From: an uncultured Gammaproteobacteria bacterium
GTDB taxonomy: Bacteria; Patescibacteriota; Patescibacteriia; 2-12-FULL-60-25
Length of the DNA: 64,000 bases
Assembly: GCA_964437285.1 (NCBI GenBank)
Contig: CAYTGF010000002.1
Span: forward strand, 3,543 to 67,542
Direction of reading: 5' to 3'
Shown: positions 3,307 through 36,582 of the stretch, piece after piece
Numbering within the stretch: the stretch's first letter is position 1
How the letters are laid out: each line of letters opens with the position of its first letter
Position numbers and translations under genes: made by a program
The notes under the pieces: model-generated
Seen by the model: the letters and a program-made list of their open reading frames with translations, nothing else
The model's database searches: none
What the model was told of the DNA's origin: nothing

Positions 3307-3873
3307 TTATTCAAGATCCTCTCCGTACAACATCGCGTGTTCGTAGACAGAGAGCATTCCTGGCGCCGTTTTTCCGTGCAGAGCGGTTTTGTATCGAGCG
3401 CGCTCCGCTTCTGCTTGATCAACCAAAGCTTTCATATCGGCATGATGCTCGCGCCACAGGAGAGCGAATATCTGCGGCATGAGGAGATCGAACTCGACGT
3501 TCTCGGCCTCATGAAAGGCGAAATCCGCCTGAGGAGAACGCCTAAGATCGGAAAAACGTGAATGCCCCTCGCGTTCTGCGAGCCTACGCAACAACACCTG
3601 TGTTGTCGGAAGACAGCGCGGCACGAGCGCTTCCCACACGAGCTCGGGATGCGTCTCCGCGAATATTCGAGCGGCACGACGGGCGGGCCAGCTCGCTTCT
3701 GCATACCGCAAGAACTCGGCTTCTTGCGCTTGCGTCCATTCGTCTCGCTTTGCCTCTTCGATAAGCGCCTCAATACTCGCGCGCAAAGACCCCTCCGTGA
3801 AGGGCCACCACGCCATAAGAGCATCCACGCGCACGCGCTTTGCTTCGTCTGATAAAGAGCGAGAAGAGGACAT
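3307..3873 (-). CDS. hypothetical protein
   Basis: 188-aa ORF co-directional with trxA-trxB, with an extended -10 seven nt upstream of the ATG. Confidence 0.6.
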   Translation of the reverse strand: MSSSRSLSDEAKRVRVDALMAWWPFTEGSLRASIEALIEEAKRDEWTQAQEAEFLRYAEASWPARRAARIFAETHPELVWEALVPRCLPTTQVLLRRLAEREGHSRFSDLRRSPQADFAFHEAENVEFDLLMPQIFALLWREHHADMKALVDQAEAERARYKTALHGKTAPGMLSVYEHAMLYGEDLE

Positions 3874-14801: not shown

Positions 14802-14836
14802 TAAGAATCCTTTTTATGGAGTTTTGTGAAGACTCC
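14802..14836. repeat. degenerate half-copy of the TAAGGAATC-type element end
   Basis: TAAGAATCC + TTTTTAT + hairpin GGAGT-TTTGTGAAG-ACTCC, the same layout as the left ends of elements A-D. Confidence 0.35.
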
Positions 14837-14841
14837 CAGCT

Positions 14842-14899
14842 GCGTAACACAAAACCGGCTTTAGGGCCGGTTTTGGGGTGGTGCAGCGGCTGGGAATCG
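14842..14899. repeat. 58-bp direct repeat copy 1 (tRNA-Lys 3' 21 nt plus its terminator)
   Basis: Identical to 14980..15037 except one G/C difference. Confidence 0.85.
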
Positions 14900-14979
14900 C
14901 CTCGCTGACCGCTCGGACCTGGGCGCACATAGATTTACTCACACGGTGAGTTCGATATGCGCCCGTTCGATTGCTAGTC

Positions 14980-15037
14980 GCGTAACACAAAACCGGCTTT
15001 AGGGCCGGTTTTGGCGTGGTGCAGCGGCTGGGAATCG
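14980..15037. repeat. 58-bp direct repeat copy 2 (overlaps the genuine tRNA-Lys 3' end)
   Basis: 57/58 match to 14842..14899. Confidence 0.85.
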
Positions 15038-15337: not shown

Positions 15338-16507
15338 TTATCGAGTCAAAAAAGATAAAGCTCTTCTTAGCCTTGAAACACCATCCGAAGAAGCAGGAAC
15401 CTGCGATGAAGCGATCTGCCGCAACTCCTCTTGAATAGAGGACAGCGTCTTATTTTGACTCAAAATACCATGTAGTTCTTTTTTAAGACGTTTTCGTATA
15501 GCATCCTTTGTAGACTCATCAAGCGTTAAATCCTGATCAAGCTCTGCTAGACGTTGAGACATTTCATGAGCGATACGCCATGTTGCCCGCGAGTGAAGTG
15601 GGCGGTGAAAGTTCGAGTTCCAGTCCGTGACCTGTGTATGAAGCTTTTGCCATGGCGGGCCGCAGTCCCCTCTGTGTCGTGGGTTAAAGATAGGATGTTT
15701 AAACGAGGAAAATGCCAAACTTTCAACCTCCCCAAACCCATCTTCATTCGGAAAGGCGTGGCGCAGAAGAAGCTCCACAAACCATTTACTAAAAATACGT
15801 GTACGTCCCGTATGCTCATAATCATCAATAATGCAGGTCTTTGCATGATGCATGCGAAGCAAAGATACATGATAGACACGAGCTACTTCGTCTAGCTTTG
15901 TAAAATACATCTCTGCCTTCGCTTCTTTATCGGAGAGACTCCTAAGAAGCGCCTCGAATAACAATGGATTCTGCGTACTTCCTAGGCTATTTCTCACTTG
16001 CTCTTTTAGCTCAGGATCACTTGATGTGGCAGCCATTCGCATTCGTTCAACGGCTCGTTCCGCAGAACGAACCTGCTCCATCAGGTCCTCTCTATGCGCA
16101 AGTTTATCGAGTTCCTGCTTAAAGGATGAAGACCAATGAGCGCAATTCTCTGGAGAGGCGAAGAGCTTTTCAATCGCGCGATTCAATAAACCAATTCCAT
16201 CCGATCGCGTGACCTCCTGGCCTATATTCATGTACGTGATGTGAGGACCTTGCTTCGTAGGATAAAGCCTGGCCCATGTTTGCCGGAAAAGTACCGTCAA
16301 CGGACGTGCGGACTTATCCAGTAAGATGAGGTTGCGAATATTTTTGTCATGAAAATACTTGACTAAGGCTTCTGCGCGTTCTCGGATACGTTTTCGCTCT
16401 TGAGGGTCGGTAAAAATTGTTCCATCTTCTACTTCCTTCTTCGCGGATAATTTTTCTGACATAAATATATGATAGAACTTTTTTAGAGTTTGATCCATTA
16501 AAAGCAT
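15338..16507 (-). CDS. phosphoribosyltransferase-like protein with a long helical insertion
   Basis: 389 aa, AT-rich. NLILLDKSARPLTVLF and a PRPP-loop-like CIIDDYEHTGRT are separated by about 150 helical residues. Confidence 0.5.
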   Translation of the reverse strand: MLLMDQTLKKFYHIFMSEKLSAKKEVEDGTIFTDPQERKRIRERAEALVKYFHDKNIRNLILLDKSARPLTVLFRQTWARLYPTKQGPHITYMNIGQEVTRSDGIGLLNRAIEKLFASPENCAHWSSSFKQELDKLAHREDLMEQVRSAERAVERMRMAATSSDPELKEQVRNSLGSTQNPLLFEALLRSLSDKEAKAEMYFTKLDEVARVYHVSLLRMHHAKTCIIDDYEHTGRTRIFSKWFVELLLRHAFPNEDGFGEVESLAFSSFKHPIFNPRHRGDCGPPWQKLHTQVTDWNSNFHRPLHSRATWRIAHEMSQRLAELDQDLTLDESTKDAIRKRLKKELHGILSQNKTLSSIQEELRQIASSQVPASSDGVSRLRRALSFLTR

Positions 16508-16583: not shown

Positions 16584-17540
16584 TCAGCGCTTGATGCGTG
16601 CCTTCACGATGTCGCGGAGCTGATCGTTCGTGAGACCCGTCCCCAGGCTTCGCGACGAGCCGCCGACGATGTCCGAGCCGTTCCAGCCGGTCTGCCGCGT
16701 CAGCCCGTCGGCCGCGTTCAGATCATCGTAGATGAGCGGGAGCGGAAAGTGCGTGACCCACTTCGAGTACCGACCGATGGAACACACCCGTCGACCATCC
16801 GTACGCTCCGCGATGATGGCGATGAATGCCTTCATCCCCTTCGAAAATAGCTTGTAGCGCTCGGGGCTTCCCCAGGTTTCGCGGTAGATCGTGAAGTCGT
16901 CGTCGCGATAGAGGATATTATGCCCAAGCTCCTTGGGCTGATTGACCCTGCCACCTCGATTCATCATGAAGTCCTGAAGACGACTCGCGACCGCCACATA
17001 GTTATCACGCAGCTGATAGCCGCTTGCTCGCGCCAGTTCGCCCGACGTCCGCAGATCCATGTACGGCTCGAAGATCCAGTTGTGCTGGGCGAGTAGATCG
17101 TCGTCGAGATTCATGGGGAACGCGCCGCCCGTGATATCGAGACGATCCGTGAGAGCGAGTAGCCGGTTGAGATGGGGGATGCTGTTCGTCCCTTCGAAAC
17201 GCTCGTGATTCAGCAGAAGCCAGAGCGCGAGCGATGTGTCCTGATCCGTGTCGTTGACCCAGACTTGGATATCGCCCTTAAGCGCGTCGACCATCCCGCC
17301 CTTGATGGCGAAGTAGATCTGATTCGCCGTCGACATGGTTGCTTCACGAATCACTCCGTCGTGGTGGTCAAAATTGAAGTGCAGCGTTTCGAAGTTATCG
17401 TACGGGCCTCCACGCACCGAACCGTCGAGGGCGATCGAGTTCGGCGGCGTCAACGCCTCGAACTCTTCACGCGTCCAGCCGACCCGCGGCACGAAGTGAA
17501 TGACCCATCGATCCTTACGATACGTGACTGATTCTTCCAT
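16584..17540 (-). CDS. hypothetical protein with His/Asp-rich motifs (FNFDHHDG, VNDTDQDT)
   Basis: 318 aa, GC-rich, own promoter and terminator. The motifs suggest a metal-dependent phosphoesterase, but the motif order does not match canonical DHH. Confidence 0.55.
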   Translation of the reverse strand: MEESVTYRKDRWVIHFVPRVGWTREEFEALTPPNSIALDGSVRGGPYDNFETLHFNFDHHDGVIREATMSTANQIYFAIKGGMVDALKGDIQVWVNDTDQDTSLALWLLLNHERFEGTNSIPHLNRLLALTDRLDITGGAFPMNLDDDLLAQHNWIFEPYMDLRTSGELARASGYQLRDNYVAVASRLQDFMMNRGGRVNQPKELGHNILYRDDDFTIYRETWGSPERYKLFSKGMKAFIAIIAERTDGRRVCSIGRYSKWVTHFPLPLIYDDLNAADGLTRQTGWNGSDIVGGSSRSLGTGLTNDQLRDIVKARIKR

Positions 17541-17616: not shown

Positions 17617-17638
17617 GGTCCGGAGTTGACTCCGGACC
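17617..17638. repeat. GGTCCGGAG-N4-CTCCGGACC hairpin (family member 1)
   Basis: Near-identical 27-nt block GGTCCGGAGTnnACTCCGGACCATTTT also occurs at 33165..33191. Confidence 0.7.
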
Positions 17639-17649
17639 ATTTTGTTTAC

Positions 17650-17726
17650 GCACCCGTAGCTCAGCTGGATAGAGCACTTCCCTCCGAAGGAAGGGGTCAG
17701 ACGTTCAAATCGTCTCGGGTGCACCA
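17650..17726 (+). tRNA. tRNA-Arg (anticodon CCG), copy 2
   Basis: Differs from copy 1 at two positions (D-stem T/C, T-loop G/A). The similar terminator hairpin is also duplicated. Confidence 0.9.
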
Positions 17727-17731
17727 TGGAA

Positions 17732-17758
17732 ACACGACCTATGCCGGTCGTGTTTTTA
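17732..17758 (+). terminator. intrinsic terminator after tRNA-Arg copy 2
   Basis: ACACGACC-loop-GGTCGTGT hairpin plus T5. Confidence 0.65.
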
Positions 17759-17766
17759 TGGGGAAG

Positions 17767-18174
17767 CTAATATCGAAATGGCTGTTCTACAGCTGCGTTC
17801 TGGGCCCGCTGATCGACAAATTTATAGCCGCATGAAAATATGATGATAAGGGTATAAATGACAAAGATCAAAAAGAAAGGCCAAGATCGAGCACGATTTT
17901 CCTTTGCCACAAAACCAAGGAAGAAAGAGAGGATCGCAAAAGGAACTGCGAAAAATACACTAAAGTAGTAGGTGAAGCGATAAAAGAAAGTTCCTGCATC
18001 GTCTGATACTGAATGCTTAATCCCAAACAGGCTAAGTAAGATAAGCAACCAGATAACGCCATAAGGAATAAGACCCACGAGGCTAACCCAAGGTCTCTTG
18101 TAAAAGAATTTTTGTATCATAATTGAAAGCTTACCAATCCTGTCTCTCTCGAGCAATATCACCACCGCACCCAA
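17767..18174 (-). CDS. hypothetical multi-pass membrane protein
   Basis: 135-aa AT-rich ORF with four hydrophobic segments. An alternative ATG is at 18120. Confidence 0.5.
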   Translation of the reverse strand: MGAVVILLERDRIGKLSIMIQKFFYKRPWVSLVGLIPYGVIWLLILLSLFGIKHSVSDDAGTFFYRFTYYFSVFFAVPFAILSFFLGFVAKENRARSWPFFLIFVIYTLIIIFSCGYKFVDQRAQNAAVEQPFRY

Positions 18175-21011: not shown

Positions 21012-21043
21012 ACCAGCACCCCTTTGTTGAGTAGCGCTAAGGA

Positions 21044-28983: not shown

Positions 28984-29155
28984 ATAAGGAATCTTTTCTT
29001 ATTTTTTATAGCTCGCTTCGCTCGCTATAGGTTTATACACGCATGAGATACAAGCGACCATTATTAAAAGATGCCTGGCACGTGCCAGGCACCTTGAAAC
29101 CACAACATGAAGCCGAGCGAAGTGAGGCTTCAGAAAAAAGAAAAAAGATTCCTTA
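28984..29155. mobile_element. MITE-like non-coding element, copy A
   Basis: TIRs ATAAGGAATCTTTTCTT / AAGAAAAAAGATTCCTTA. Hairpins at 29007-29029 and 29109-29131. Central palindrome TGCCTGGCAC|GTGCCAGGCA at 29072-29091. Confidence 0.6.
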
Positions 29156-29181
29156 ACGAGCTTATTCGAAGTTTCACCGCG

Positions 29182-29190
29182 TGCTATACT
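29182..29190 (+). promoter_or_regulatory. extended -10 (TGcTATACT) 6 nt upstream of the tkt ATG (leaderless geometry)
   Basis: TGCTATACT-TCGTTC-ATG. Confidence 0.45.
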
Positions 29191-29196
29191 TCGTTC

Positions 29197-30051
29197 ATGC
29201 GCTCTTTATCGATTCAAGAACTCGAACTCATGGCGAATACGATTCGTCAGGATATTATTAAAGCGCTTGTTCGCGCCACGAGTGGGCATTCTGCGGGACC
29301 GCTTGGCATGGCGGACATTTTCACTGCCCTCTACTTCCATATTTTACATATTGATCCAAAGAACCCAACGCTTCCGGATCGCGATCGTCTCGTACTCTCA
29401 AACGCACACATCTGCCCGGTATTGTATGCAACCCTGGCTCGGCGTGGGTTTTGCTCCGTGGATGCATTTCATCAAACCCTTCGCGCCTTCGGATCGCCAT
29501 TCCAAGGACATTCAAACAACCACTTTGGCATTGGCATAGAAACATGCGGCGGCCCACTCGGACAAGGAATCTCGCAGGCCGTAGGGATGGCGTACGCTGC
29601 AAAAATGGATCGCGCTCGCTGGCGAACCTACTGCCTGATGGGTGATGGCGAACTCAATGAGGGCCAATGCTGGGAAGCGTTTTTGTTCGCAGGAAAAGCG
29701 AAGCTCCATCAACTTACCGTTATTATTGATCGAAACAATATTCAAATCGATGGCTTTACCGAAAGCGTTATGCCCCTCGAACCACTCGAAGAAAAACTCG
29801 AAGCGTTCGGGTTTCACGTGATCGAGGTCGATGGTCATAACATGCGCAGAGTGATTGATGCACTAGAAGAAGCTCAGGCGGTGTATGAACGTCCTACCGC
29901 TATTATCGCGCACACCATCCCAGGGAAGGGCGTGAGTTTTATGGAGGCCGATTTTACCTGGCACGGAAAACCTCCCGATGACGCCCAAGCACGACGTGCC
30001 CTCCACGAACTGCGAACCCTTGCCGGCGCCATAGAATCCGAACACGAATAA
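29197..30051 (+). CDS. transketolase, N-terminal (TPP-binding) subunit
   Basis: GHSAGPLGMADIF, GDGELNEGQCWEA motifs. The track start at 29107 lies inside element A. Confidence 0.9.
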   Translation: MRSLSIQELELMANTIRQDIIKALVRATSGHSAGPLGMADIFTALYFHILHIDPKNPTLPDRDRLVLSNAHICPVLYATLARRGFCSVDAFHQTLRAFGSPFQGHSNNHFGIGIETCGGPLGQGISQAVGMAYAAKMDRARWRTYCLMGDGELNEGQCWEAFLFAGKAKLHQLTVIIDRNNIQIDGFTESVMPLEPLEEKLEAFGFHVIEVDGHNMRRVIDALEEAQAVYERPTAIIAHTIPGKGVSFMEADFTWHGKPPDDAQARRALHELRTLAGAIESEHE

Positions 30052-30052
30052 T

Positions 30053-31021
30053 ATGCTGCATCCCGACCTTTTTACCGAACGCCAACAGTCCATTCCAACG
30101 CGAAATGGCTATGGTGACGCCCTTCTCCAACTTGGTGATGACGAACGAGTTGTTGTGTTAACGGCTGACCTTGCAGAATCTACACGCGTTCACGAGTTTC
30201 GTGAAAAGTACCCTGAGCAGTTCATTGAATGCGGCGTATCAGAACAGAACATGGTGGGCATGGCCGCCGGTCTCGCGCTCAGTGGAAAGATTCCGTTCGT
30301 AAGTTCGTATGCAACCTTTATGCCCGGCCGCACCTGGGACCAGGTGCGCGTTTCCGTTTGCTACACCAATGCAAACGTGAAGCTGGTTGGAGCGCATGCT
30401 GGGCTATCCGTCGGACCAGATGGCGCTACACATCAAGCTCTTGAGGATATCGCCATTACCCGCGTTCTACCAAATATTGTCGTGATCGTTCCCTGTGATT
30501 ATCACGAAACCAAGCAAGCAACCCTCGCGATGGCGGGCATGGAAGGCCCTGCATATATTCGGTTTTCGCGTGAAAAAAGCCCCCTTATTCTCGCAGAAGA
30601 AGCGCCGTTTATTATTGGCAAGCACGTAGTGTTGCGTCCTGGAACAGACGTGACGATTGTCGCGTGCGGGCCGCTTGCATACGAAGCGCTCGAAGCCGCA
30701 CGTCAGCTCGAAAAACGAGGTGTAGACGCGGAAGTGATCAACGCTTCAACTCTCAAACCCTTTGATGAAAAAACCCTCCTAAAAAGCGCCAAGAAAACCG
30801 GCTGTATCGTGACCGTGGAAGAACATCAAATCCACGGGGGACTCTTTGGAGCCGTGAGCGAGATTCTTGCTCGAGCGCTCCCAACCCCTGTCGAGGCTAT
30901 CGCGATGCCTGATAGCTTTGGCGAATCCGGCGAGCCCGCCGAACTTCTTCATGCCTACGGCCTCACGAGTGCAGAAATCGTAAAAGCCGCAAAAAAAGCC
31001 ATTTCCAGACGGGATACTTGA
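30053..31021 (+). CDS. transketolase, C-terminal (pyrimidine-binding) subunit
   Basis: FIECGVSEQNMVGMAAGLA, GPDGATHQALEDIA motifs. Starts 2 nt after the N-subunit stop. Confidence 0.9.
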   Translation: MLHPDLFTERQQSIPTRNGYGDALLQLGDDERVVVLTADLAESTRVHEFREKYPEQFIECGVSEQNMVGMAAGLALSGKIPFVSSYATFMPGRTWDQVRVSVCYTNANVKLVGAHAGLSVGPDGATHQALEDIAITRVLPNIVVIVPCDYHETKQATLAMAGMEGPAYIRFSREKSPLILAEEAPFIIGKHVVLRPGTDVTIVACGPLAYEALEAARQLEKRGVDAEVINASTLKPFDEKTLLKSAKKTGCIVTVEEHQIHGGLFGAVSEILARALPTPVEAIAMPDSFGESGEPAELLHAYGLTSAEIVKAAKKAISRRDT

Positions 31022-31088
31022 TTAAACCAGCAAGGTACTCTACACTCGTCTTCTCCTCGAACCCCTTTCAGGAGAAGAAGGATTTTGC

Positions 31089-31505
31089 ATGGAAGAACCA
31101 TCGGAACGGCTCAGGCGTATTCTCGAAGAGCTGACCGTCACCCGTGTTGAGGACGGGCAGCCGAACATCATCCACCTCAATCGCGCATACAACGAACTGT
31201 CCCGACTCTGGGCAGTCACGCGACGCGCCGAACGTGGAGAGCTCGCCGCGCCTGAACTCGCCCATCAACCGGTCGTTCGTCTCACGATCTGGAACCGTCA
31301 CAAGCGACTCCGATCGCTGTGCGATGAGTTCTTTCGGAACGGATCGCCGGACACCTTTGCGCGAACCCACGTGACCTCCCTCGGTCGGCACCACTTCGGC
31401 GGTACCCGAGACGACCAGACGGGTGCCCCCACTCACACGGTTTACACCTTCGCTCTCACCTCCCCCGAGACGAACAAAGACCTCCCCCGTTGCCGACGGC
31501 CCTAA
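31089..31505 (+). CDS. hypothetical protein
   Basis: 138 aa, GC-rich, AGGAGAAGAAGG upstream, terminator downstream. Confidence 0.5.
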   Translation: MEEPSERLRRILEELTVTRVEDGQPNIIHLNRAYNELSRLWAVTRRAERGELAAPELAHQPVVRLTIWNRHKRLRSLCDEFFRNGSPDTFARTHVTSLGRHHFGGTRDDQTGAPTHTVYTFALTSPETNKDLPRCRRP

Positions 31506-31527
31506 CCCCGTCAGAACACCCCCTCTC

Positions 31528-31549
31528 ATGAGCGAAAGCTCATTTTTTT
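31528..31549 (+). terminator. intrinsic terminator
   Basis: ATGAGC-GAAA-GCTCAT hairpin plus T-run. Confidence 0.7.
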
Positions 31550-31568
31550 CTTCAAAAAAATCTCATCA

Positions 31569-31787
31569 TAAGGAATCTTTTCTTATTTTTCACCGCCTCG
31601 CTTCGCTCGGCTGTGATTATTTACTCTAACGCAACCACCCTCTCAAACCAGCCAAGCAAAGCGAGGCTAAAAAAGCATTTCACCTCCCAATTAAACCAGC
31701 CGAGCGAAGGCGTTATGGCATGCGCCATTCTTTCTTCAACCCAGCCGAGCGTAGCGAGGCTGTAAAGAAAGAAAAGATTATTCCTTA
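31569..31787. mobile_element. MITE-like non-coding element, copy B
   Basis: TIRs TAAGGAATCTTTTCTT / AAGAAAAGATTATTCCTTA. One forward and three reverse GAGCGAAG-type units. The right end overlaps the last codons and stop of 31778..32365. Confidence 0.55.
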
Positions 31788-32365
31788 TTCGGTTGGTGCT
31801 CGAAAACGTGGAGAGCAACGTCAGCGAGCATACGAACCATTAAAAACAAGAACATCGCATTTCGTACAACCGGAAATAGCACCAGCGTTCCATGCATCGG
31901 TAAGATTCGCGTATACGGATTGGAAAGTTGATTTGTTTTTTGTTCTCGATGATAAAAAAACGCATGAAGATGATGCAGAAAAAACATGACCGCCCCCACC
32001 CCCATCCAAAGATACTCCGCCGATGGCGGCATCCCAAAGAACTCACGTATGAACAAGAAATACACAAGGTGGAACCCTCCGTAATGCAGAATAAACACCC
32101 CCACGGATACCATATTTCCCAAGAATCGAGTCATAGAGTCCAGTACTCCATATCCATACTCCGTCTTGGTTTCCCCTATCAGAATCCGCACTATCCCTAC
32201 CACACCGATAGCCACGCTCTGCCCCCAATACACCCATAATGCCGTAGCGAAATCCCATTTTTGCGTCAGAGCAAACAAAATCACTATGATATTCACCCCG
32301 ATCAACGTCCAAAGGGAGGGATCCTGGAACCAAGCCCTTTTCTGCACAAGAGATAACATATCCAA
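31778..32365 (-). CDS. hypothetical multi-pass membrane protein
   Basis: 195 aa, AT-rich, 5-6 hydrophobic segments. Confidence 0.6.
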   Translation of the reverse strand: MDMLSLVQKRAWFQDPSLWTLIGVNIIVILFALTQKWDFATALWVYWGQSVAIGVVGIVRILIGETKTEYGYGVLDSMTRFLGNMVSVGVFILHYGGFHLVYFLFIREFFGMPPSAEYLWMGVGAVMFFLHHLHAFFYHREQKTNQLSNPYTRILPMHGTLVLFPVVRNAMFLFLMVRMLADVALHVFEHQPNKE

Positions 32366-32422
32366 AGTATACCATCTCTTGCCAAACCCTTGCGTACTCA
32401 GTAGGCTGTGGCCACCACTCCT

Positions 32423-32509
32423 GGGTGGATACCGAAGCGGTCAAACGGGACAGACTGTAAATCTGTTGGCCCTGCGCCTTCGAAGGTTCGAATCCTTCTC
32501 CACCCACCA
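32423..32509 (+). tRNA. tRNA-Tyr (anticodon GTA)
   Basis: GGGTGGA..CCGAAGCGGTCAAACGGG..ACTGTAAATC..long variable arm..GAAGGTTCGAATCCTTC-TCCACCC-ACCA. Confidence 0.9.
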
Positions 32510-32515
32510 TAAAAA

Positions 32516-32540
32516 ACACCCTCAAAGGAGGGTGTTTTTT
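32516..32540 (+). terminator. intrinsic terminator
   Basis: ACACCCTC-AAAG-GAGGGTGT hairpin plus T-run. Confidence 0.75.
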
Positions 32541-32553
32541 GATTCCCCCAATC

Positions 32554-32582
32554 TTGACAAGTCCTCCGCTCCATGATAGCGT
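32554..32582 (+). promoter_or_regulatory. sigma70-type promoter
   Basis: TTGACA (32554-32559), 17-nt spacer, TAGCGT. Confidence 0.45.
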
Positions 32583-32613
32583 TTGCGAGCTCAAAGACGA
32601 GCAAGGAGGCCTC

Positions 32614-33054
32614 ATGCAAACTGATCACGCGTCCAACACGCCTACCCAAGCGCTCCGCTCCTTCTTTCGGCTCGAGGACGCGACCAAGAACGCCCTCATC
32701 CAGATGGCGATGGCTCACGAGCTCGTCTACACGGGACCGAATGGAGAGCCCCTCCTGACGGCGGGTGCGCGCAGCCGGCTCCTCAACATCGGCTTCACGC
32801 GCAGCCTCCGCTCGATCGCACAACGACGCGACGGGAACCCGTTCTCCTCAACGGAGAGACTCTCTCCGGAGTCGACCATGCACACGATCTACAAGCGGCT
32901 CGTGTCTGATCAGCCGAATGCGATCCAGGAGCTGTTCACGACGCACCTCGAAGATCTCCGCGCCTATCTCGAAGCCTCTGCGCTCCCTCGCACTACATTC
33001 CTCTTCGTCTGCAGCCTCTTCGTCATCGACGCGCAGAGCTCGCAACCTTCCTGA
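32614..33054 (+). CDS. hypothetical protein
   Basis: AAGGAGG 5 nt upstream of ATG 32614. 146 aa, GC-rich, terminator follows. Confidence 0.5.
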   Translation: MQTDHASNTPTQALRSFFRLEDATKNALIQMAMAHELVYTGPNGEPLLTAGARSRLLNIGFTRSLRSIAQRRDGNPFSSTERLSPESTMHTIYKRLVSDQPNAIQELFTTHLEDLRAYLEASALPRTTFLFVCSLFVIDAQSSQPS

Positions 33055-33061
33055 CCCCCTC

Positions 33062-33086
33062 CCCCGGTGATCCACCGGGGTTTTTT
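33062..33086 (+). terminator. intrinsic terminator
   Basis: CCCCGGTG-ATC-CACCGGGG hairpin plus T6. Confidence 0.75.
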
Positions 33087-33087
33087 A

Positions 33088-33315
33088 TAAGGAATCTATG
33101 TTTTTTTCATGGCTCGCTTCGCTCGCCATGGGTTTATAGAGAAAACAGCTCGTATAGAGAAGGTGGTCCGGAGTGAACTCCGGACCATTTTAAAGATAGC
33201 TAAACAAGAGACGAACGAAGTGAGTCTCTTATAAAAAAGCACGATTCCTTAGATGTGTGGATACCCGAGAGACAAGCGAAGCGAGTCTCTCAAGAAAAAG
33301 AAAAGAGATTCCTTA
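33088..33315. mobile_element. MITE-like non-coding element, copy C
   Basis: TIRs TAAGGAATCTATGTTTTT / AAGAAAAGAGATTCCTTA. Forward hairpin at 33108-33130, central GGTCCGGAG hairpin at 33164-33187, reverse hairpins at 33207-33229 and 33267-33291. Confidence 0.6.
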
Positions 33316-33365
33316 TTCTGAACGAAAAAACAAAAACACCCCGAAGTCCTTCGAGATGTTTTTTG

Positions 33366-33441
33366 TGGAGCCGTTGACCGGGATTGAACCGGTGACCTCA
33401 TCCTTACCATGGATGTGCTCTACCAGCTGAGCTACAACGGC
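33366..33441 (-). tRNA. tRNA-Thr (anticodon GGT)
   Basis: GCCGTTG-TA-GCTCAGCTGGTAGAGC-A-CATCC-ATGGTAA-GGATG..ACCGG-TTCAATC-CCGGT-CAACGGC-TCCA. Confidence 0.9.
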
Positions 33442-33501
33442 GTAAAAAGATGTGAGCAGACGAGCCGCAAAAGCCTATCAATTCCCCTCTTGATCGTCAA
33501 A

Positions 33502-33743
33502 TAAGGAGTTTTTCTATTTTTTTATGGCTCGCTTCGCTCGCCATGGGTTTATGTGGAAAAGGTGCCAGGCACGTGCCTGGCACGTGCCTGGCACCTTTTC
33601 CACATGAGAAACGAGGCAAGCGATACAGATATACGAGAGACGAACGAAGTGAGTCTCTCAAAAAAGAAACGAGAGTCCTTAGCTGTATGGATACACAAAA
33701 GACGAGCGAAGCGAGGCTCTCAAAATAGAAAGAGAATTCCTTA
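33502..33743. mobile_element. MITE-like non-coding element, copy D
   Basis: TIRs TAAGGAGTTTTTCTATTTT / AAAATAGAAAGAGAATTCCTTA. Forward hairpin at 33524-33544, 55-nt palindrome, reverse hairpin at 33635-33659 plus a further unit near 33700. Confidence 0.6.
33551..33605. repeat. 55-nt perfect palindrome
   Basis: ATGTGGAAAAGGTGCCAGGCACGTGCC-T-GGCACGTGCCTGGCACCTTTTCCACAT. 27-nt arms checked base by base. Confidence 0.9.
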
Positions 33744-33772
33744 TAAAAAAACCCGGTGAGAGATCACCGGGG
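33744..33772 (-). terminator. intrinsic terminator of the kinase-like/vWA cassette
   Basis: Minus strand reads CCCGGTGA-TCTC-TCACCGGG plus a T-run. Confidence 0.75.
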
Positions 33773-33778
33773 AAAGAG

Positions 33779-34771
33779 TCAGCGCGAGGCTTCGCGGCGC
33801 TTGCGGCGCTCGTGCGGAGTGCCGCTTGAGGGGGTCACGGGCTGTGCGGGGCGCTCGGGGGCGCCGCGGAGGATCGAGTGGGCGTAGGCCTCGATCGGCA
33901 GGATGATGCGCGTAGCGACGTCGCCTGAACGACCGAGCCTGAGCAGTCCCTGCTGGAGCTCTCCGAGGCTTGTGACCGCTCCGGTCTGAATGGCCGTCAG
34001 CGCACCAGCGATATCGCAGATGTCATCATATCTCTGCGCGACGATGACACGCTCACCGAGCACCTCCCGCCAGGAATGCTCGCACTCACGGGCACGCGAC
34101 GCATCGGGAATGATGCAAAAGATGTCCCACGTCTGCGAGGCACGCTCGAAGATCGTCTTCACGGTCTCGGTCGTATCAGAGATGTCTCCAAACACGACCG
34201 ACATGTCCCTGGGGCGGCATGACGGGAAGAGGTTGTCGTCACCCGTGATGAAGGCGACCCCCTTCTGTCCACGCCTCTCGAAGCAGTCGATCGACGTTCT
34301 GGAGGCGAGCATCTCCGCGAAGAGGTGGTAGGACTCTCCGCCGTTCCCTCCGCCATTGCAGAAATCGACGACCGCCATGCCCGTCAACGTACGGTTCATG
34401 AGCTCCGCCGTTGATTCGAACTGCCCGACCTGAAAGGCGTTGCGACCATCCGTTGCGACGTCCCCAATGCCGGCGAAGAGCGGCTGGGGGTCCTGAACCC
34501 CGAGCGTCACGAGCACCTGCATGAAGTTCGGGAGCGACTTCTGCGCCATATTGATGGGAATGTGTTCCATCGATCCGGTAAGGTCGAGACCGAAGGCGAT
34601 CGCGATTGAGCGCGGATGCTCGGCGCTGTCACGACTCTCACGCACCTTCATGCGGTACGCGAGCATGGTCTTCGAGACCTCGGTCTCCTTGAACACCTCA
34701 CGTGCCGGCGCTCGAGCCTGGCTCGTGGTGATCTTCTGATGCGCTTCGTGACTGTAGGACCCGTATCCCAT
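33779..34771 (-). CDS. von Willebrand factor A (vWA) domain protein
   Basis: 330 aa. MIDAS-type motif IAIAFGLDLTGSM (DxTxS), later GDVATDG and ITGDD acidic motifs. GAGAGG upstream. Confidence 0.75.
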   Translation of the reverse strand: MGYGSYSHEAHQKITTSQARAPAREVFKETEVSKTMLAYRMKVRESRDSAEHPRSIAIAFGLDLTGSMEHIPINMAQKSLPNFMQVLVTLGVQDPQPLFAGIGDVATDGRNAFQVGQFESTAELMNRTLTGMAVVDFCNGGGNGGESYHLFAEMLASRTSIDCFERRGQKGVAFITGDDNLFPSCRPRDMSVVFGDISDTTETVKTIFERASQTWDIFCIIPDASRARECEHSWREVLGERVIVAQRYDDICDIAGALTAIQTGAVTSLGELQQGLLRLGRSGDVATRIILPIEAYAHSILRGAPERPAQPVTPSSGTPHERRKRREASR

Positions 34772-34810
34772 GGTGGACCTCTCTTCTCTGCGTGGTGGAT
34801 GATCCAGTGG

Positions 34811-36472
34811 TCAGGAGTGACGCGCTGGCAAGTGGAAGGGAATGTAGCGAGGCTTCCCGTGAGCGGCTTGTACCGCTTGTCGGTAGGGCAAGAATACGTC
34901 GTTGTAGGTATTGGACACGCTCGGGAGCGTATCGTACCCAGCGAGAGAGCGTAGATAGTCAGAGAACGGATCTCGCTCAAGGCGCTCAAGCACACCCGAC
35001 CGAGTTTCTTCCCCCGTCAGCGCCCAGAGCAAGCACCGCGCGGCCATAGTGACGTCGTGGGCACGGGTGGCTTCCTCCCCATCAAGAATCTCTTTTGGGT
35101 AGAAGGCCTTCCTGTGCGTCACGTGCAGATCGATCGGCTGTCCAGCGCTTGCAGCGTAGCTATGGTCGATGATCGTGGCGTAGTGCATGAAGGGGTGCAG
35201 GAGCACGTGCTCGGGAACGATCGCTCCGTGAACGACACCGAGTTGGTGCATCCAGGCGATCTCCTCAAACATGCGCCGACCAATCCAAGCGACGGCGTGT
35301 GAGGGCAGACCCTCAGGATACTCCGTCAGAGCCTCCGCAAGGTTCCAGTCATACCCAGGCTTTGCCACAAACACGAGCGCCTGTACGGACTCCCCGGTGT
35401 CACCGCGTAGGAGCTCTCCCCGATCTGCCACTCGGCGGATCCGGCGACGATAGACGCTCGTGGCTTCCGAGGTCGTGTCTGCCCCCAGTCGCTCGAGCAT
35501 CCGCGCTTCTCGTGCAAATCGCTCCGGAGCCAACGGGTCATCCGCGAGCTTGATGATCACGCTCAGCGGCGGATTGTAGAGACGATGGGCACGAAAGACC
35601 TGCGACTTCTCGCCTCTACCAACCCTCCCCTCCACGAGGTACTCGACCCCGTTCAGGGTCCAGGTCGGCGCGTTGGGCTGCTCGCGGCGCAGGAGAGCGG
35701 CGCGCAAAGTGTGTTCGCGGCCGTTCCATTGCTCACGCTGTACACCAAAGGCAACTGACTGCAGTACCAGCGCTCGAATTGCCGCAAGATCCGCAAAACC
35801 GTAGTCCTGCGGCTTGCACAAGAACTCAGGAACCTCGTCAAATGAACGCAGGCACCGAACGTGCCCAGGTCCATGAAAGAGATACGCAAGCAGCACGTAG
35901 AGCGACGCGGAGAGCTCTGTGAGCTGTCGCTCGAGCTCTGGGTGCACACGCGCATCTGCCCAGCGTCGAATCCCCTCGTCCGTGAGTGGAATCGTGGCGC
36001 CAGGAACCGTGCTCACATCCTTTCCAGCTTGTGGATCGGTCAGCTCACCCGTAGTCCACGCAATCTTGCGGAGACATATCGGAGGAAGTACGACCACACC
36101 AACGTGACAGACGGGGCACTGGTTTCCCTCTTCGAATTCCCAGGTGCGACCACCGACATTCGCGAGCATCAGCTCCTGACAGGACGAACACTGGCGCGTT
36201 TCCGGCGAGACCTTGGCGAGCAGCTGCGCTACTTCGCGCAGTCGCACGAGCGACTCCGCCTCGAGATGTTCGAGCTTGAGCGCATCGCGCAGCTCGTCCT
36301 CCCCAACCAGTGCCAGTCGACCAAAGGTCAGCTCTTCGCCGAAGAGCCGACGATAGAGACGGTTCGCTTGGCGAGCATCCGCTGACGTCAACAGGCGAGC
36401 GAGCAGTCGCTCGATCCCCTGCGTAAACGTCGACGGGATGAGAACAGAACGGATATCCAACGCGTGCGCCAT
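34811..36472 (-). CDS. zinc-ribbon plus protein-kinase-like protein with non-canonical catalytic loop
   Basis: CSSCQ-x18-CPVCH. G-loop GRGEKSQVF, VIIK, EARMLE, HGAIVPEH in place of HRDLKPxN, DHS in place of DFG, DVTMAARCLLWALTG. Start at ATG 36472; the ORF extends to 36538. Confidence 0.65.
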   Translation of the reverse strand: MAHALDIRSVLIPSTFTQGIERLLARLLTSADARQANRLYRRLFGEELTFGRLALVGEDELRDALKLEHLEAESLVRLREVAQLLAKVSPETRQCSSCQELMLANVGGRTWEFEEGNQCPVCHVGVVVLPPICLRKIAWTTGELTDPQAGKDVSTVPGATIPLTDEGIRRWADARVHPELERQLTELSASLYVLLAYLFHGPGHVRCLRSFDEVPEFLCKPQDYGFADLAAIRALVLQSVAFGVQREQWNGREHTLRAALLRREQPNAPTWTLNGVEYLVEGRVGRGEKSQVFRAHRLYNPPLSVIIKLADDPLAPERFAREARMLERLGADTTSEATSVYRRRIRRVADRGELLRGDTGESVQALVFVAKPGYDWNLAEALTEYPEGLPSHAVAWIGRRMFEEIAWMHQLGVVHGAIVPEHVLLHPFMHYATIIDHSYAASAGQPIDLHVTHRKAFYPKEILDGEEATRAHDVTMAARCLLWALTGEETRSGVLERLERDPFSDYLRSLAGYDTLPSVSNTYNDVFLPYRQAVQAAHGKPRYIPFHLPARHS

Positions 36473-36553
36473 GGAAGACCTCGCAGTTCTTTCTGTATAG
36501 GGGTGAAAGGAACGATCGTTTGTGTGAAAAATACACACCTAGACGATACTCGT

Positions 36554-36582
36554 TTTATACCAAAAATCTTCCCTCCTGTCAA
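36554..36582 (-). promoter_or_regulatory. sigma70-type promoter of the kinase-like/vWA cassette
   Basis: Minus strand reads TTGACA, 17-nt spacer ending in TGG, TATAAA. The -35 overlaps the stop region of the upstream TPR gene. Confidence 0.6.

Follow-up and report, generated by a model that had tools for sequence, protein, structure and literature searches.

REP, REPIN and BIME repeats, mobilised by RAYT (Y1) in Enterobacteria and Pseudomonas, are short extragenic imperfect palindromes that are non-coding and non-autonomous; REPINs are doublets in inverted orientation and fold as one long hairpin, and BIMEs are mosaics with other hairpin motifs, sited at gene 3' ends near terminators. Bacterial MITEs, such as the Neisseria Correia elements and IS630/Tc1-derived repeats, are intergenic, non-coding and hairpin-folding, lie next to promoters and terminators, and are bounded by terminal inverted repeats that have TA at either extremity. 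IS200/IS605 elements and their PATE derivatives have subterminal hairpins plausibly recognised as folded single-stranded DNA, and short non-autonomous derivatives exist. Four elements of 170-240 bp, A to D, share these likenesses in a 64-kb window (the whole stretch of DNA analysed) from a Patescibacteria (CPR) bacterium near Uhrbacteria.

The elements also depart from each of these systems. Unlike REPs and BIMEs, they have no GTAG-type 5' motif, no RAYT in the window and no sequence similarity to them; the hairpin core is conserved rather than the stem, the termini are long (an A-tract plus GATTCCTTA) with left and right ends differentiated, and, where REPs number tens to hundreds, no more than four copies are seen here, in a cluster. 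Unlike MITEs, they have at most a putative TA target duplication and no cognate IS or transposase identified among the window ORFs, are seen in low copy number, and end in modules that are tandemly duplicated and only 46-91% identical, so that there was no recent burst. IS200/IS605 elements lack terminal inverted repeats and carry both end hairpins on the same strand, whereas the ends of A-D are inverted, and neither TnpA nor TnpB was found in the window. On balance, A-D probably constitute a lineage-specific, non-autonomous foldback repeat of the MITE or REPIN-BIME kind. The finding is of modest novelty and not a new kind of system.

Four elements built from one hairpin module

The preliminary description proposed a family of four non-coding elements, bounded by terminal inverted repeats and packed with hairpins. 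All four copies lie where it placed them, with ends that can be aligned, and together they form a BIME-like mosaic. A coding signal was sought in A-D and none was found, and an Rfam search of the four gave no matching family. In an alignment of the four copies, every one starts with ATAAGGA(A/G)T and ends with (A/G)TCCTTA; the TA is a conserved part of these termini and comprises the same bases as any TA target duplication. Each element has one inverted left module, a GC-rich, terminator-like central hairpin, and then one to three right modules. Because the left module is inverted relative to the right ones, the termini are inverted repeats and both strands are able to fold end to end. The module itself, of about 48 nt, is a 5-7-bp stem of free sequence around the fixed core GA-GC-GAA-GC-GA, followed by an A-rich tract and the terminal GATTCCTTA. 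Bit scores below are from R1, a covariance model of the 48-50-nt module that was run over the 64-kb window.

28984-29155, unstranded: element A; inverted left module, central palindrome and one right module
28985-29033, minus: A-left module; stem TATAGC/GCTATA; R1, 66.4 bits
29073-29090, unstranded: A central palindrome, 18 nt, GCCTGGCACGTGCCAGGC
29105-29155, plus: A-right module; stem TGAAGCC/GGCTTCA; R1, 63.5 bits
31569-31787, unstranded: element B; inverted left module, two decayed hairpin units and one right module
31569-31618, minus: B-left module; R1, 67.3 bits
31647-31674, plus: B partial module, hairpin only, core AAGCAAAGCGAG; R1, 14 bits, E = 0.57; direct repeats D6 and D11
31737-31787, plus: B-right module, core GAGCGTAGCGAG; R1, 55.7 bits
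33088-33315, unstranded: element C; inverted left module, terminator-like hairpin and two tandem right modules
33088-33134, minus: C-left module; stem CATGGC/GCCATG; R1, 63.2 bits
33164-33187, unstranded: C central hairpin, GGTCCGGAG-TGAA-CTCCGGACC, then ATTTT
33203-33251, plus: C-mid module, core GAACGAAGTGAG; R1, 62.2 bits
33264-33315, plus: C-right module; R1, 65.4 bits
33366-33441, minus: tRNA-Thr(GGT), bracketed by C and D; context, outside the repeat
33502-33743, unstranded: element D; inverted left module, 55-nt perfect palindrome and two tandem right modules
33502-33549, minus: D-left module; R1, 55.6 bits
33551-33605, unstranded: D central palindrome, an A-tract, GGTGCCAGGCACGTGCC and onward, and a T-tract, in the form of a bidirectional terminator
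33632-33681, plus: D-mid module; R1, 66.5 bits
33694-33743, plus: D-right module; R1, 57.8 bits

The central palindromes reported for A, C and D were borne out, the arms of that in D being 27 nt long and 100% complementary in the inverted-repeat listing (I5). A hairpin of the type at the centre of C also occurs solitarily at 17617 and 18230.

R1 matched exactly ten full modules (55-67 bits) and one partial module (31647-31674) in the 64 kb, all of them within A-D. Shorter motifs were likewise enriched: the 19-mer TAAGGAATCTTTTCTTATT, at up to three mismatches, had 3 matches against 0.01 expected; ATTCCTTA had 10 against 1.14, with 8 of the 10 inside elements; and GAGCGAAGCGAG, at up to two mismatches, had 37 against 12.2, with all four exact matches and four of six one-mismatch matches inside elements. 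Two solo end motifs had also been proposed, and neither is a module: that at 14802 is inexact, that at 21038 is a bare 8-mer at chance rate, and R1 scores neither. The same is true of a bare 8-mer at 18062. Left-type modules are 74-75% alike among themselves and only about 50-62% alike to the right module of their own element, which indicates that whole elements with distinct ends were copied and not single units.

Folding of the modules

Hairpin partners covary across the modules. Pairing was found in 90.6% of cells, against 23-48% after the partners were slid, and both sides had changed in seven of nine pairs, including a GC-to-AT exchange in the 2-bp mini-stem, so that stems vary yet stay paired. 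The core of C-mid, GAACGAAGTGAG, carries this compensated GC-to-AT pair. The predicted fold of the module is a stem, a 2x2 GA/GA loop, GC/GC and a GAA triloop. When folded as single-stranded DNA, element A paired end to end (-41.1 kcal/mol, z = -9.0), as did element C (z = -5.7).

The d(GCGAAGC) mini-hairpin reportedly goes back to Hirao and co-workers. The invariant centre of all modules is this same GCGAAGC or its compensated form ACGAAGT; in the purine-rich strand GA/GA adjoins it on both sides, where tandem sheared G·A pairs are possible. d(GCGAAGC) is documented as a DNA mini-hairpin of extraordinary stability (PMC13037366, review). A mini-hairpin of this type may therefore form in the modules, as judged from the likeness of their centres. 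The motif is familiar from physico-chemical work and occurs in phage origins, but it is not known to form the core of any bacterial repeat family. Since the core is fixed and the stem need only pair, recognition of a folded state, either single-stranded or cruciform DNA, is suggested, and may resemble that in REP/RAYT and IS200/IS605-type systems.

Genomic setting

At five of the eight element ends a terminator is found 7-25 nt outside. Element A sits between the terminator of a cupredoxin-like gene and the putative tktN promoter, and the last bases of B are the final three codons and stop of a DUF6498 gene (31778-32365, minus strand). C lies between the terminator of a 171-aa ORF and that of tRNA-Thr, while D adjoins on its left the -35 of tRNA-Thr (TTGACG, a candidate read by eye) and is separated on its right by 8 nt from the terminator that belongs to the gene at 33779-34771. 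The sequences flanking C-left and D-right make up an inverted repeat of 23 nt, 96% complementary, that includes both terminators (I10). All four copies fall within 4.8 kb, a clustering with P about 0.0015 if placement were uniform, and neither the remaining 59 kb of the window nor about 100 kb of syntenic DNA from relatives contained another.

This setting would also fit non-mobile intergenic structures that serve the host, for example as transcription insulators or terminator boosters, mRNA 3'-end stabilisers, or sites for DNA- or RNA-binding proteins, and whose spread through duplication and gene conversion is purely local. We regard this as rather unlikely. All copies lie in one short stretch, each adjoins a terminator and carries a terminator-like centre, and the stems covary, although self-templating of palindromes can yield covariation without selection. 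The A-tracts of A-right and D-left stand at UP-element positions upstream of by-eye promoters, neither of which was called by a promoter scan. However, orientation to genes and promoters is inconsistent, with only two of eight ends facing a promoter; the module hairpins have no following T-run and so are not terminators themselves; and the lack of an Rfam match also counts against a host role.

Association with tRNA genes had been proposed for the family as a whole. It holds for C and D, which bracket tRNA-Thr, but A and B are not beside tRNAs, the end of B being 636 nt from tRNA-Tyr. Other tRNA-linked duplications occur in the window, at tRNA-Lys and tRNA-Arg. It is highly improbable that C, D and perhaps A and B are scars at a tRNA hot spot, that is, end or attachment leftovers of larger, since-deleted integrative elements. 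The direct repetition of C and D around tRNA-Thr, the 23-nt inverted repeat in their flanks, the tRNA-Lys and tRNA-Arg duplications, and the absence of D together with two unknown genes (33779-36538) from the syntenic relative L083 would agree with it. Yet A and B stand apart from tRNAs, all four elements are complete structures with inverted ends rather than half-sites, and no integrase or cargo remnants lie beside the elements (Pfam, window ORFs). As had been noted, the window holds no transposase, integrase or RAYT (Pfam, 62 window ORFs), nor any recombinase gene, and A-D are thus non-autonomous.

A recombinase unit with similar ends

A module-pattern scan of a genome collection returned 68 loci, about 24 of them Patescibacteria with one conserved sequence, in which CACCAG is followed by TAAGGAATTTGCAAGCGG and then by GGTTCGCC-TCGCTTCGCTC-GGCGACC. 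This sequence directly follows the CCA end of varied tRNAs (Leu, Lys, Arg, Glu, Tyr). At L012, L016 and L062, two such arms of 69-99 nt, inverted and 86-99% complementary, enclose a protein of 440 aa that carries Resolvase, Recombinase and Zn_ribbon_recom domains. This large serine recombinase (LSR) family is very large, and its identity of at least 83% across CPR lineages indicates horizontal movement.

A-D could be non-autonomous relatives of this CPR-wide unit, with its LSR binding the TAAGGAAT terminus plus hairpin and moving or rearranging them, but we find this doubtful. In both systems, each in a Patescibacteria host, the octamer TAAGGAAT stands at the outer end of inverted repeats; what comes before it is ACCAG in the LSR arms and A in the elements of the window. 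About 20 nt further in, both have a hairpin whose loop is a 12-mer (CTCGCTTCGCTC). C and D lie on either side of a tRNA, and the LSR unit abuts tRNA 3' ends. The search pattern itself, however, imposed the 8-mer, the 12-mer and the spacing that the two have in common, and the link is therefore speculative. Outside them the arms, of about 100 bp, differ from the window termini and do not align, and the 12-mer loop may be convergent, since unrelated hairpin repeats in other phyla have it too. The LSR unit (L012 162-1750, L016, L062) is 1.6 kb, protein-coding and always directly after a tRNA CACCAG, and is made more complex by a second, interleaved inverted repeat. By contrast, no window element adjoins a tRNA CCA end, C being about 50 nt away and past a terminator, and a tblastn search of the window for an LSR homologue found none. 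The LSRs known so far bind to half-sites in duplex form and do not require a hairpin. If the relationship were true, a T-rich TAAGGAATCT-type terminus would be expected on the LSR arms of Uhrbacteria-clade relatives.

Presence and absence in relatives

Presence/absence polymorphism, a check named in the preliminary description, was observed, with both empty sites and orthologues. All four sites are empty in the syntenic L083, and the site of A is empty in five relatives (L076, L077, L078, L080/L081 and L083, at the same intergenic site); the syntenic relatives without elements have 80-87% TktC identity. The left junction of D is exact, with cgtcaa followed by ATAAGGAGT in the window and by ctcagg in L083, and at the B site of L083, which has no B, the two flanking genes overlap. 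L001 and L002 contain B, L082 (94% TktC identity) has the left end of B, and L072 carries an orthologue of C with 88.5% identity plus indels. Carriage by these independent assemblies (L001, L002, L072, L082) rules out an assembly artefact. Absence from syntenic relatives, with orthologues of B and C in two closer ones, marks the elements as lineage-specific insertions. Complete inverted-end elements at four intergenic sites, with relatives lacking them, are also a pattern that simple tandem duplication in a host-functional repeat does not yield. No other genome yielded a copy at a site that is clearly non-orthologous, and actual transposition is thus unobserved.

The elements were inserted in the lineage of the host species and its closest relatives, into A/T-rich spacers that border intrinsic terminators on the outside; two of the sites are also immediately upstream of a by-eye promoter. 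Under the foldback-repeat reading, a recombinase or transposase encoded in trans, outside the window, may recognise the terminal TAAGGAAT and the nearby hairpin. The host would tolerate the elements and perhaps benefit mildly from added hairpins or terminators between transcription units. Local duplication, loss and homogenisation of modules followed, as comparison with L072 shows; the tandem right modules, swapped cores and inverted loop are examples.

C-left is 97.9% identical to its L072 orthologue, and the outer modules of C are 92-98% identical, above third codon positions (81.9%), a hint that they may do something for the host rather than drift selfishly, which would favour a host-functional, non-mobile repeat. 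Core variants were swapped between modules in L072 relative to the window, an exchange also compatible with that alternative, and the loop at the centre of C is inverted in L072 (TTCA).

Modular elements with inverted ends

The four non-coding inserts designated A to D have a modular structure with inverted ends, built on a structurally conserved hairpin, and are insertions relative to related genomes. A preliminary description, read from the sequence alone, had placed four copies of a MITE/BIME-like family near tRNA genes at the following coordinates; the copies are present there and their ends align, each starting with ATAAGGA(A/G)T and finishing with (A/G)TCCTTA.

28984-29155, element A; terminal inverted-repeat pairs I17 and I8
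31569-31787, element B; terminal inverted-repeat pairs I22 and I9
33088-33315, element C; terminal inverted-repeat pair I18
33502-33743, element D; terminal inverted-repeat pair I14

The elements are 172-242 bp long, and the arms of their terminal inverted repeats measure 20-31 nt with 76-86% complementarity within each element. Only short spurious ORFs overlap them, and they have no Pfam or Rfam matches. Over the whole window, Rfam returned tRNAs alone at the gathering score, and with E up to 1 it added trivial hairpin matches only. Membership in a known Rfam family was rejected, the sub-threshold miRNA-type matches on the D palindrome being trivial hairpins.

In the 64-kb window the 19-mer left end matched three times against 0.01 expected, and ATTCCTTA matched ten times against 1.14 expected, with eight of the ten matches inside the elements. 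The 12-mer GAGCGAAGCGAG was likewise enriched, and all four exact matches and four of the six one-mismatch matches lay inside the elements. A covariance model was built from the module alignment (A1) and used for an unfiltered scan of the 64 kb; full modules numbered exactly ten (55-67 bits), with a single partial module in addition, and all lay within A to D. The solo end motifs of the preliminary description (14802 and 21038) were not upheld, as the module model gave them no score; together with a site at 18062 they were rejected as solo ends, being bare 8-mers that occur at chance rate. Independent assemblies (L001 and L002) carry the same elements at 99.5-100% identity and two related loci (L072 and L082) also carry copies, and the elements are therefore not an assembly artefact.

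Module anatomy and folding

On the purine-rich strand, a module consists of a variable 5-7-bp stem around GA-GC-GAA-GC-GA, followed by an A-rich tract of 12-20 nt and GATTCCTTA. Pairwise identity among modules ranges from 46 to 91%, and stem sequences vary (TATAGC, CATGGC, CAGCC, GAGAGAC and others) with complementarity kept: 90.6% of cells are paired, as against 23-48% when the partners are slid. Both sides are changed in seven of nine pairs, including a GC-to-AT change in the two-pair mini-stem, which gives C-mid and D-mid the core GAACGAAGTGAG. Nearest-neighbour folding of the modules produced the expected stem, 2x2 loop, GC/GC pairs and triloop. The centre of the module, GCGAAGC, is a documented, extraordinarily stable DNA mini-hairpin (PMC13037366). 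On the purine strand, the GA/GA to either side of it may adopt tandem sheared pairing. The module is a compact natural case of structure-level conservation, with an invariant GCGAAGC core and freely covarying stems, and offers a direct test object for in vivo recognition of folded DNA or RNA.

At the left of each element stands a single inverted module, at the right stand one to three modules, and a GC-rich hairpin forms the centre. Folding pairs the two ends of the whole element, with -41 kcal/mol and z = -9.0 for A and z = -5.7 for C. Left-type modules are 74-75% identical to each other but only about 50-62% identical to the right module of their own element, which points to the copying of whole elements with differentiated ends. 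Among the element hairpins only the central ones look terminator-like, and these are members of other small hairpin families. A GCCAGG...CCTGGC hairpin occurs in A and D, and a related hairpin is found solitary at site A of the syntenic locus L076 and inside B of L082; a GGTCCGGAG-N4-CTCCGGACC hairpin occurs in C and is also solitary at window positions 17617 and 18230. The centres are thus drawn from other hairpin families, and the build of the elements is therefore mosaic.

Two other roles for the modules were rejected. The module hairpins are not intrinsic terminators, since on the purine strand the A-run comes after the hairpin and on the other strand the T-run comes before it, and TAAGGA(A/G) is not a Shine-Dalgarno sequence, since direct reading showed no start codon at the proper distance downstream. 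As a separate observation, the 4-nt loop of the central hairpin of C (33173-33176) reads TGAA in the window and, in L072, its reverse complement TTCA, an inversion of the kind made by intra-palindrome recombination or template switching.

Empty sites and orthologues in related genomes

From the source names of TktC homologues, the host was judged to be a Patescibacteria bacterium near Candidatus Uhrbacteria. Syntenic loci were taken from relatives with 80-87% TktC identity, and none of these loci contains a module. Site A, the gap between the cupredoxin gene and tktN, is 65-271 nt long in L076, L077, L078, L080/L081 and L083 and contains nothing but a terminator and a promoter. In L083, where synteny is kept across the whole region, A, B, C and D are all absent; the two genes flanking site B overlap, and the D-left junction is exact, with ...cgtcaa/ATAAGGAGT in the window against ...cgtcaa/ctcagg in L083 (the slash marks the junction). 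This is the sole exact empty-site junction, the right side having no counterpart for comparison, and with all element ends reading TA-AGGA...TCCT-TA a TA target duplication is indistinguishable from conserved termini. A degenerate second tRNA-Thr copy was also seen in this locus (L083:4500-4580), at the place that element C occupies in the window.

Closer relatives retain parts of the family. L082 (94% TktC identity) has the left end of B with a different centre, and L072 (86% nucleotide identity) has an orthologue of C. Between the window and L072 copies of C, indels comprise the loss of one module tail and 14-15-nt gaps, and core variants are swapped between modules. The preliminary description had named a lack of presence/absence polymorphism among related strains as grounds for refutation; the sites are in fact empty in syntenic relatives, with orthologues of B and C in closer ones. 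Together these comparisons indicate that A to D are lineage-specific insertions, since inherited and remodelled, and no ancient conserved spacers.

The four copies occupy four sites within 4.8 kb of the 64 kb (P ~0.0015 under uniform placement), and the outer modules of C are 92-98% identical to those of L072, compared with 82% for third codon positions in the adjacent ORF. Both the clustering of the copies and the conservation of the outer modules of C favor an alternative without mobility, in which the elements are functional structures that spread through local duplication and gene conversion; we consider it unlikely overall. Public-collection scans recovered orthologous copies only, and the genome and metagenome scans, which were pattern-limited, yielded none at a non-orthologous site in another genome; this result, the clustering and the divergence of the modules all limit the mobile reading. 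Element A had no match in the plasmid collection, and the module pattern had 0 matches in the viral collection. CPR (Patescibacteria) genomes, which are small, are generally portrayed as having few repeats and little mobile DNA; the present lineage-specific foldback family shows that they do gain and remodel selfish or semi-domesticated DNA in short intergenic gaps.

Placement beside terminators

The elements lie beside terminators, no enzyme for them is encoded in the window, and their modules turn over locally. Five of the element ends (A-left, B-left, C-left, C-right and D-right) have a predicted intrinsic terminator 7-25 nt beyond them. A terminator separates C-right from tRNA-Thr, which is 50 nt away, and B-right is the source of the final three codons and stop of the DUF6498 membrane gene. 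On direct reading, D-left adjoins a TTGACG that fits the -35 of a tRNA-Thr promoter, and A-right is just upstream of a candidate tktN promoter, although the consensus promoter scan called neither. A promoter or sRNA function of the elements themselves was rejected, with two promoter-like sites found against 3.6 expected from shuffles. That the elements are scars of integrative elements around a tRNA hot spot seems to us highly improbable.

The preferred reading is that of inserted elements moved in trans. A trans-acting enzyme would recognise the TAAGGAAT terminus and a folded hairpin, given that the core is fixed and the stem free. Insertion would take place into the A/T-rich tails of terminators, and the elements may be retained because they do no harm or because the extra hairpins they place between transcription units are of mild use.

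Comparison with known repeat classes

MITEs are non-coding, under about 500 bp, dispersed in copies with terminal inverted repeats and a target duplication, and have a cognate autonomous element. A to D are likewise small and non-coding with terminal inverted repeats, but no cognate autonomous element with matching ends was found among the 62 window ORFs or by tblastn with the large serine recombinase (LSR) treated below. REP, REPIN and BIME sequences have a conserved GTAG-type tetranucleotide, a RAYT gene usually flanked by REPs, and tens to hundreds of copies. A to D resemble these in having short imperfect palindromes in inverted pairs that form a larger hairpin and are mixed with other motifs; they differ in that no GTAG stands 5' of the stems in alignment A1 (AAACC, CATGA, CCCGA and similar are found instead) and no RAYT (Y1 transposase) gene lies within the window. 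IS200/IS605 PATEs have no terminal inverted repeats, and their subterminal hairpins point the same way at either end, whereas the end modules of A to D are inverted relative to each other. REPIN/BIME and TA-flanked MITEs such as Correia elements are closest in function and architecture, although no GTAG, RAYT or cognate IS was seen. Unlike these, A to D combine a fixed core with freely varying stems, their ends are differentiated and duplicated in tandem, and their centre resembles a terminator.

A serine recombinase unit at CPR tRNA 3' ends

The preliminary description had recognised no transposase, integrase or RAYT-like gene in the window, and this held: Pfam identified the 62 window ORFs as housekeeping genes or left them as unknowns, none of them being a transposase, integrase, RAYT or serine recombinase, and tblastn with the LSR was also negative. 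The collection scan used the pattern GAGCGAAGCGAG-N14-32-ATTCCTTA and matched 68 loci, about 24 of which come from a wide range of Patescibacteria lineages and share a single conserved sequence. Along the tRNA strand this reads ...CACCAG/TAAGGAATTTGCAAGCGG...GGTTCGCC-TCGCTTCGCTC-GGCGACC... and stands directly 3' of the encoded CCA of different tRNAs. In three loci, two inverted arms (69-99 nt, 86-99% complementary, starting ACCAG/TAAGGAATTTGCAAGC) surround a 440-aa LSR with Resolvase, Recombinase and Zn_ribbon_recom domains, forming a unit of ~1.6 kb.

L012:162-1750, LSR unit; second inverted pair at 21-52 and 1627-1658
L016:797-2480, LSR unit; second inverted pair at 664-689 and 2355-2380
L062:2128-3658, LSR unit; second inverted pair at 1955-1987 and 3557-3589

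The unit occurs in many Patescibacteria lineages, and in every case one of its arms directly adjoins a tRNA at the CCA end (Leu, Lys, Arg, Glu or Tyr). At E up to 1e-30 the LSR family comprises more than 7,800 clusters; it is at least 83% identical across CPR lineages, compared with only 25-30% identity to phage integrases; the viral collection yielded two truncated copies without arms. Our literature search found no description of the unit, of a CPR serine-recombinase IS, or of the 12-mer.

LSR arms and A to D have in common the outer end TAAGGAAT and, about 20 nt inside it, a hairpin with the loop CTCGCTTCGCTC, which was the search criterion. A to D might on this basis be short, non-autonomous, LSR-mobilised relatives of the tRNA-abutting unit, with the shared terminus and GA-GCGAAGC-GA mini-hairpin as a recognition or regulatory signal, but we regard this as doubtful. 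The octamer, hairpin position and loop were imposed by the search pattern, and blastn of the ~100-bp arm consensus against the window matched over the 18-nt loop region only. No window element directly joins a tRNA ...CACCAG 3' end, no LSR homologue was found in the window by tblastn, and in other phyla unrelated hairpin repeats have the same 12-mer as their loop. The link is accordingly kept as a lead. The highly conserved unit, placed exactly at tRNA 3' ends in many CPR lineages and with the same terminus and loop, offers a concrete candidate enzyme. If the link were true, A to D would be serine-recombinase-mobilised MITEs, with a folded-DNA feature as part of a serine-recombinase site.

The second inverted pair of the unit (AAAATATGGTTCGAGCCGATGTTTTT) is interleaved with the main arms, and a conserved stretch of ~125 nt ending ...GAATACAGCACCAG lies upstream. 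This second, interleaved repeat shows that the unit is more complex than a simple IS. A solo arm with GGGGAAAGAAAATTTTTAATC was seen directly upstream of unrelated genes, adjacent to tRNAs, in six loci (L004, L041, L052, L054, L056 and L075), at least two of these genes (L041 and L052) having a pilin-like N-terminus (NQKGFA / MNRGFA); the solo arm looks like a portable 5' region.

The 12-mer GAGCGAAGCGAG was also observed as the loop of GTCATT(C/T)C-...-GAAT hairpin repeats (L026, L028, L031, L040, L042, L045, L048, L061, L066 and others) in MAGs labelled Dormiibacterota, Acidobacteriota, KSB1, Hydrogenedentota, Firestonebacteria and other phyla. The wide recurrence of the GCGAAGC-core hairpin is possibly convergence. 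In Nealsonbacteria and Saccharibacteria loci (L050:5150-5290, L059:1080-1400 and L057:1-110), the 12-mer occurs within tandem repeats between genes; there it is flanked by AAGGTTCT repeats that are direct and not inverted, which makes this a different repeat family.

Other repeats and islands in the window

Several further features of the window were observed.

33073-33095 and 33736-33758, 23-nt inverted repeat, 96% complementary, flanking C-left and D-right on their outer sides
33744-36578, two genes of no clear family, one of 330 aa and one of 575 aa that has a weak kinase-like match, between D and the TPR gene
14831-14899 and 14969-15037, tRNA-Lys(CTT) 3' half and terminator, duplicated 138 nt apart at 91% identity
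15183-15270 and 17645-17732, tRNA-Arg(CCG) copies, 94% identity over 88 nt, 2,462 nt apart

The 23-nt inverted repeat takes in both neighbouring terminators (CCCCGGTGA..CACCGGGGTTTTTT), so that a larger inverted repeat encloses the segment made up of C, tRNA-Thr and D. Both genes of 33744-36578 are absent from the syntenic L083, so that D borders a small inserted island. The tRNA-Lys duplication resembles an attachment-site scar and adjoins a 60% GC block (about 10.5-14.8 kb) whose ORFs have no Pfam matches. The tRNA-Arg copies flank two ORFs with no assigned function (15338-16507 and 16584-17540), and the pair may mark an integrated element that brought its own tRNA copy.
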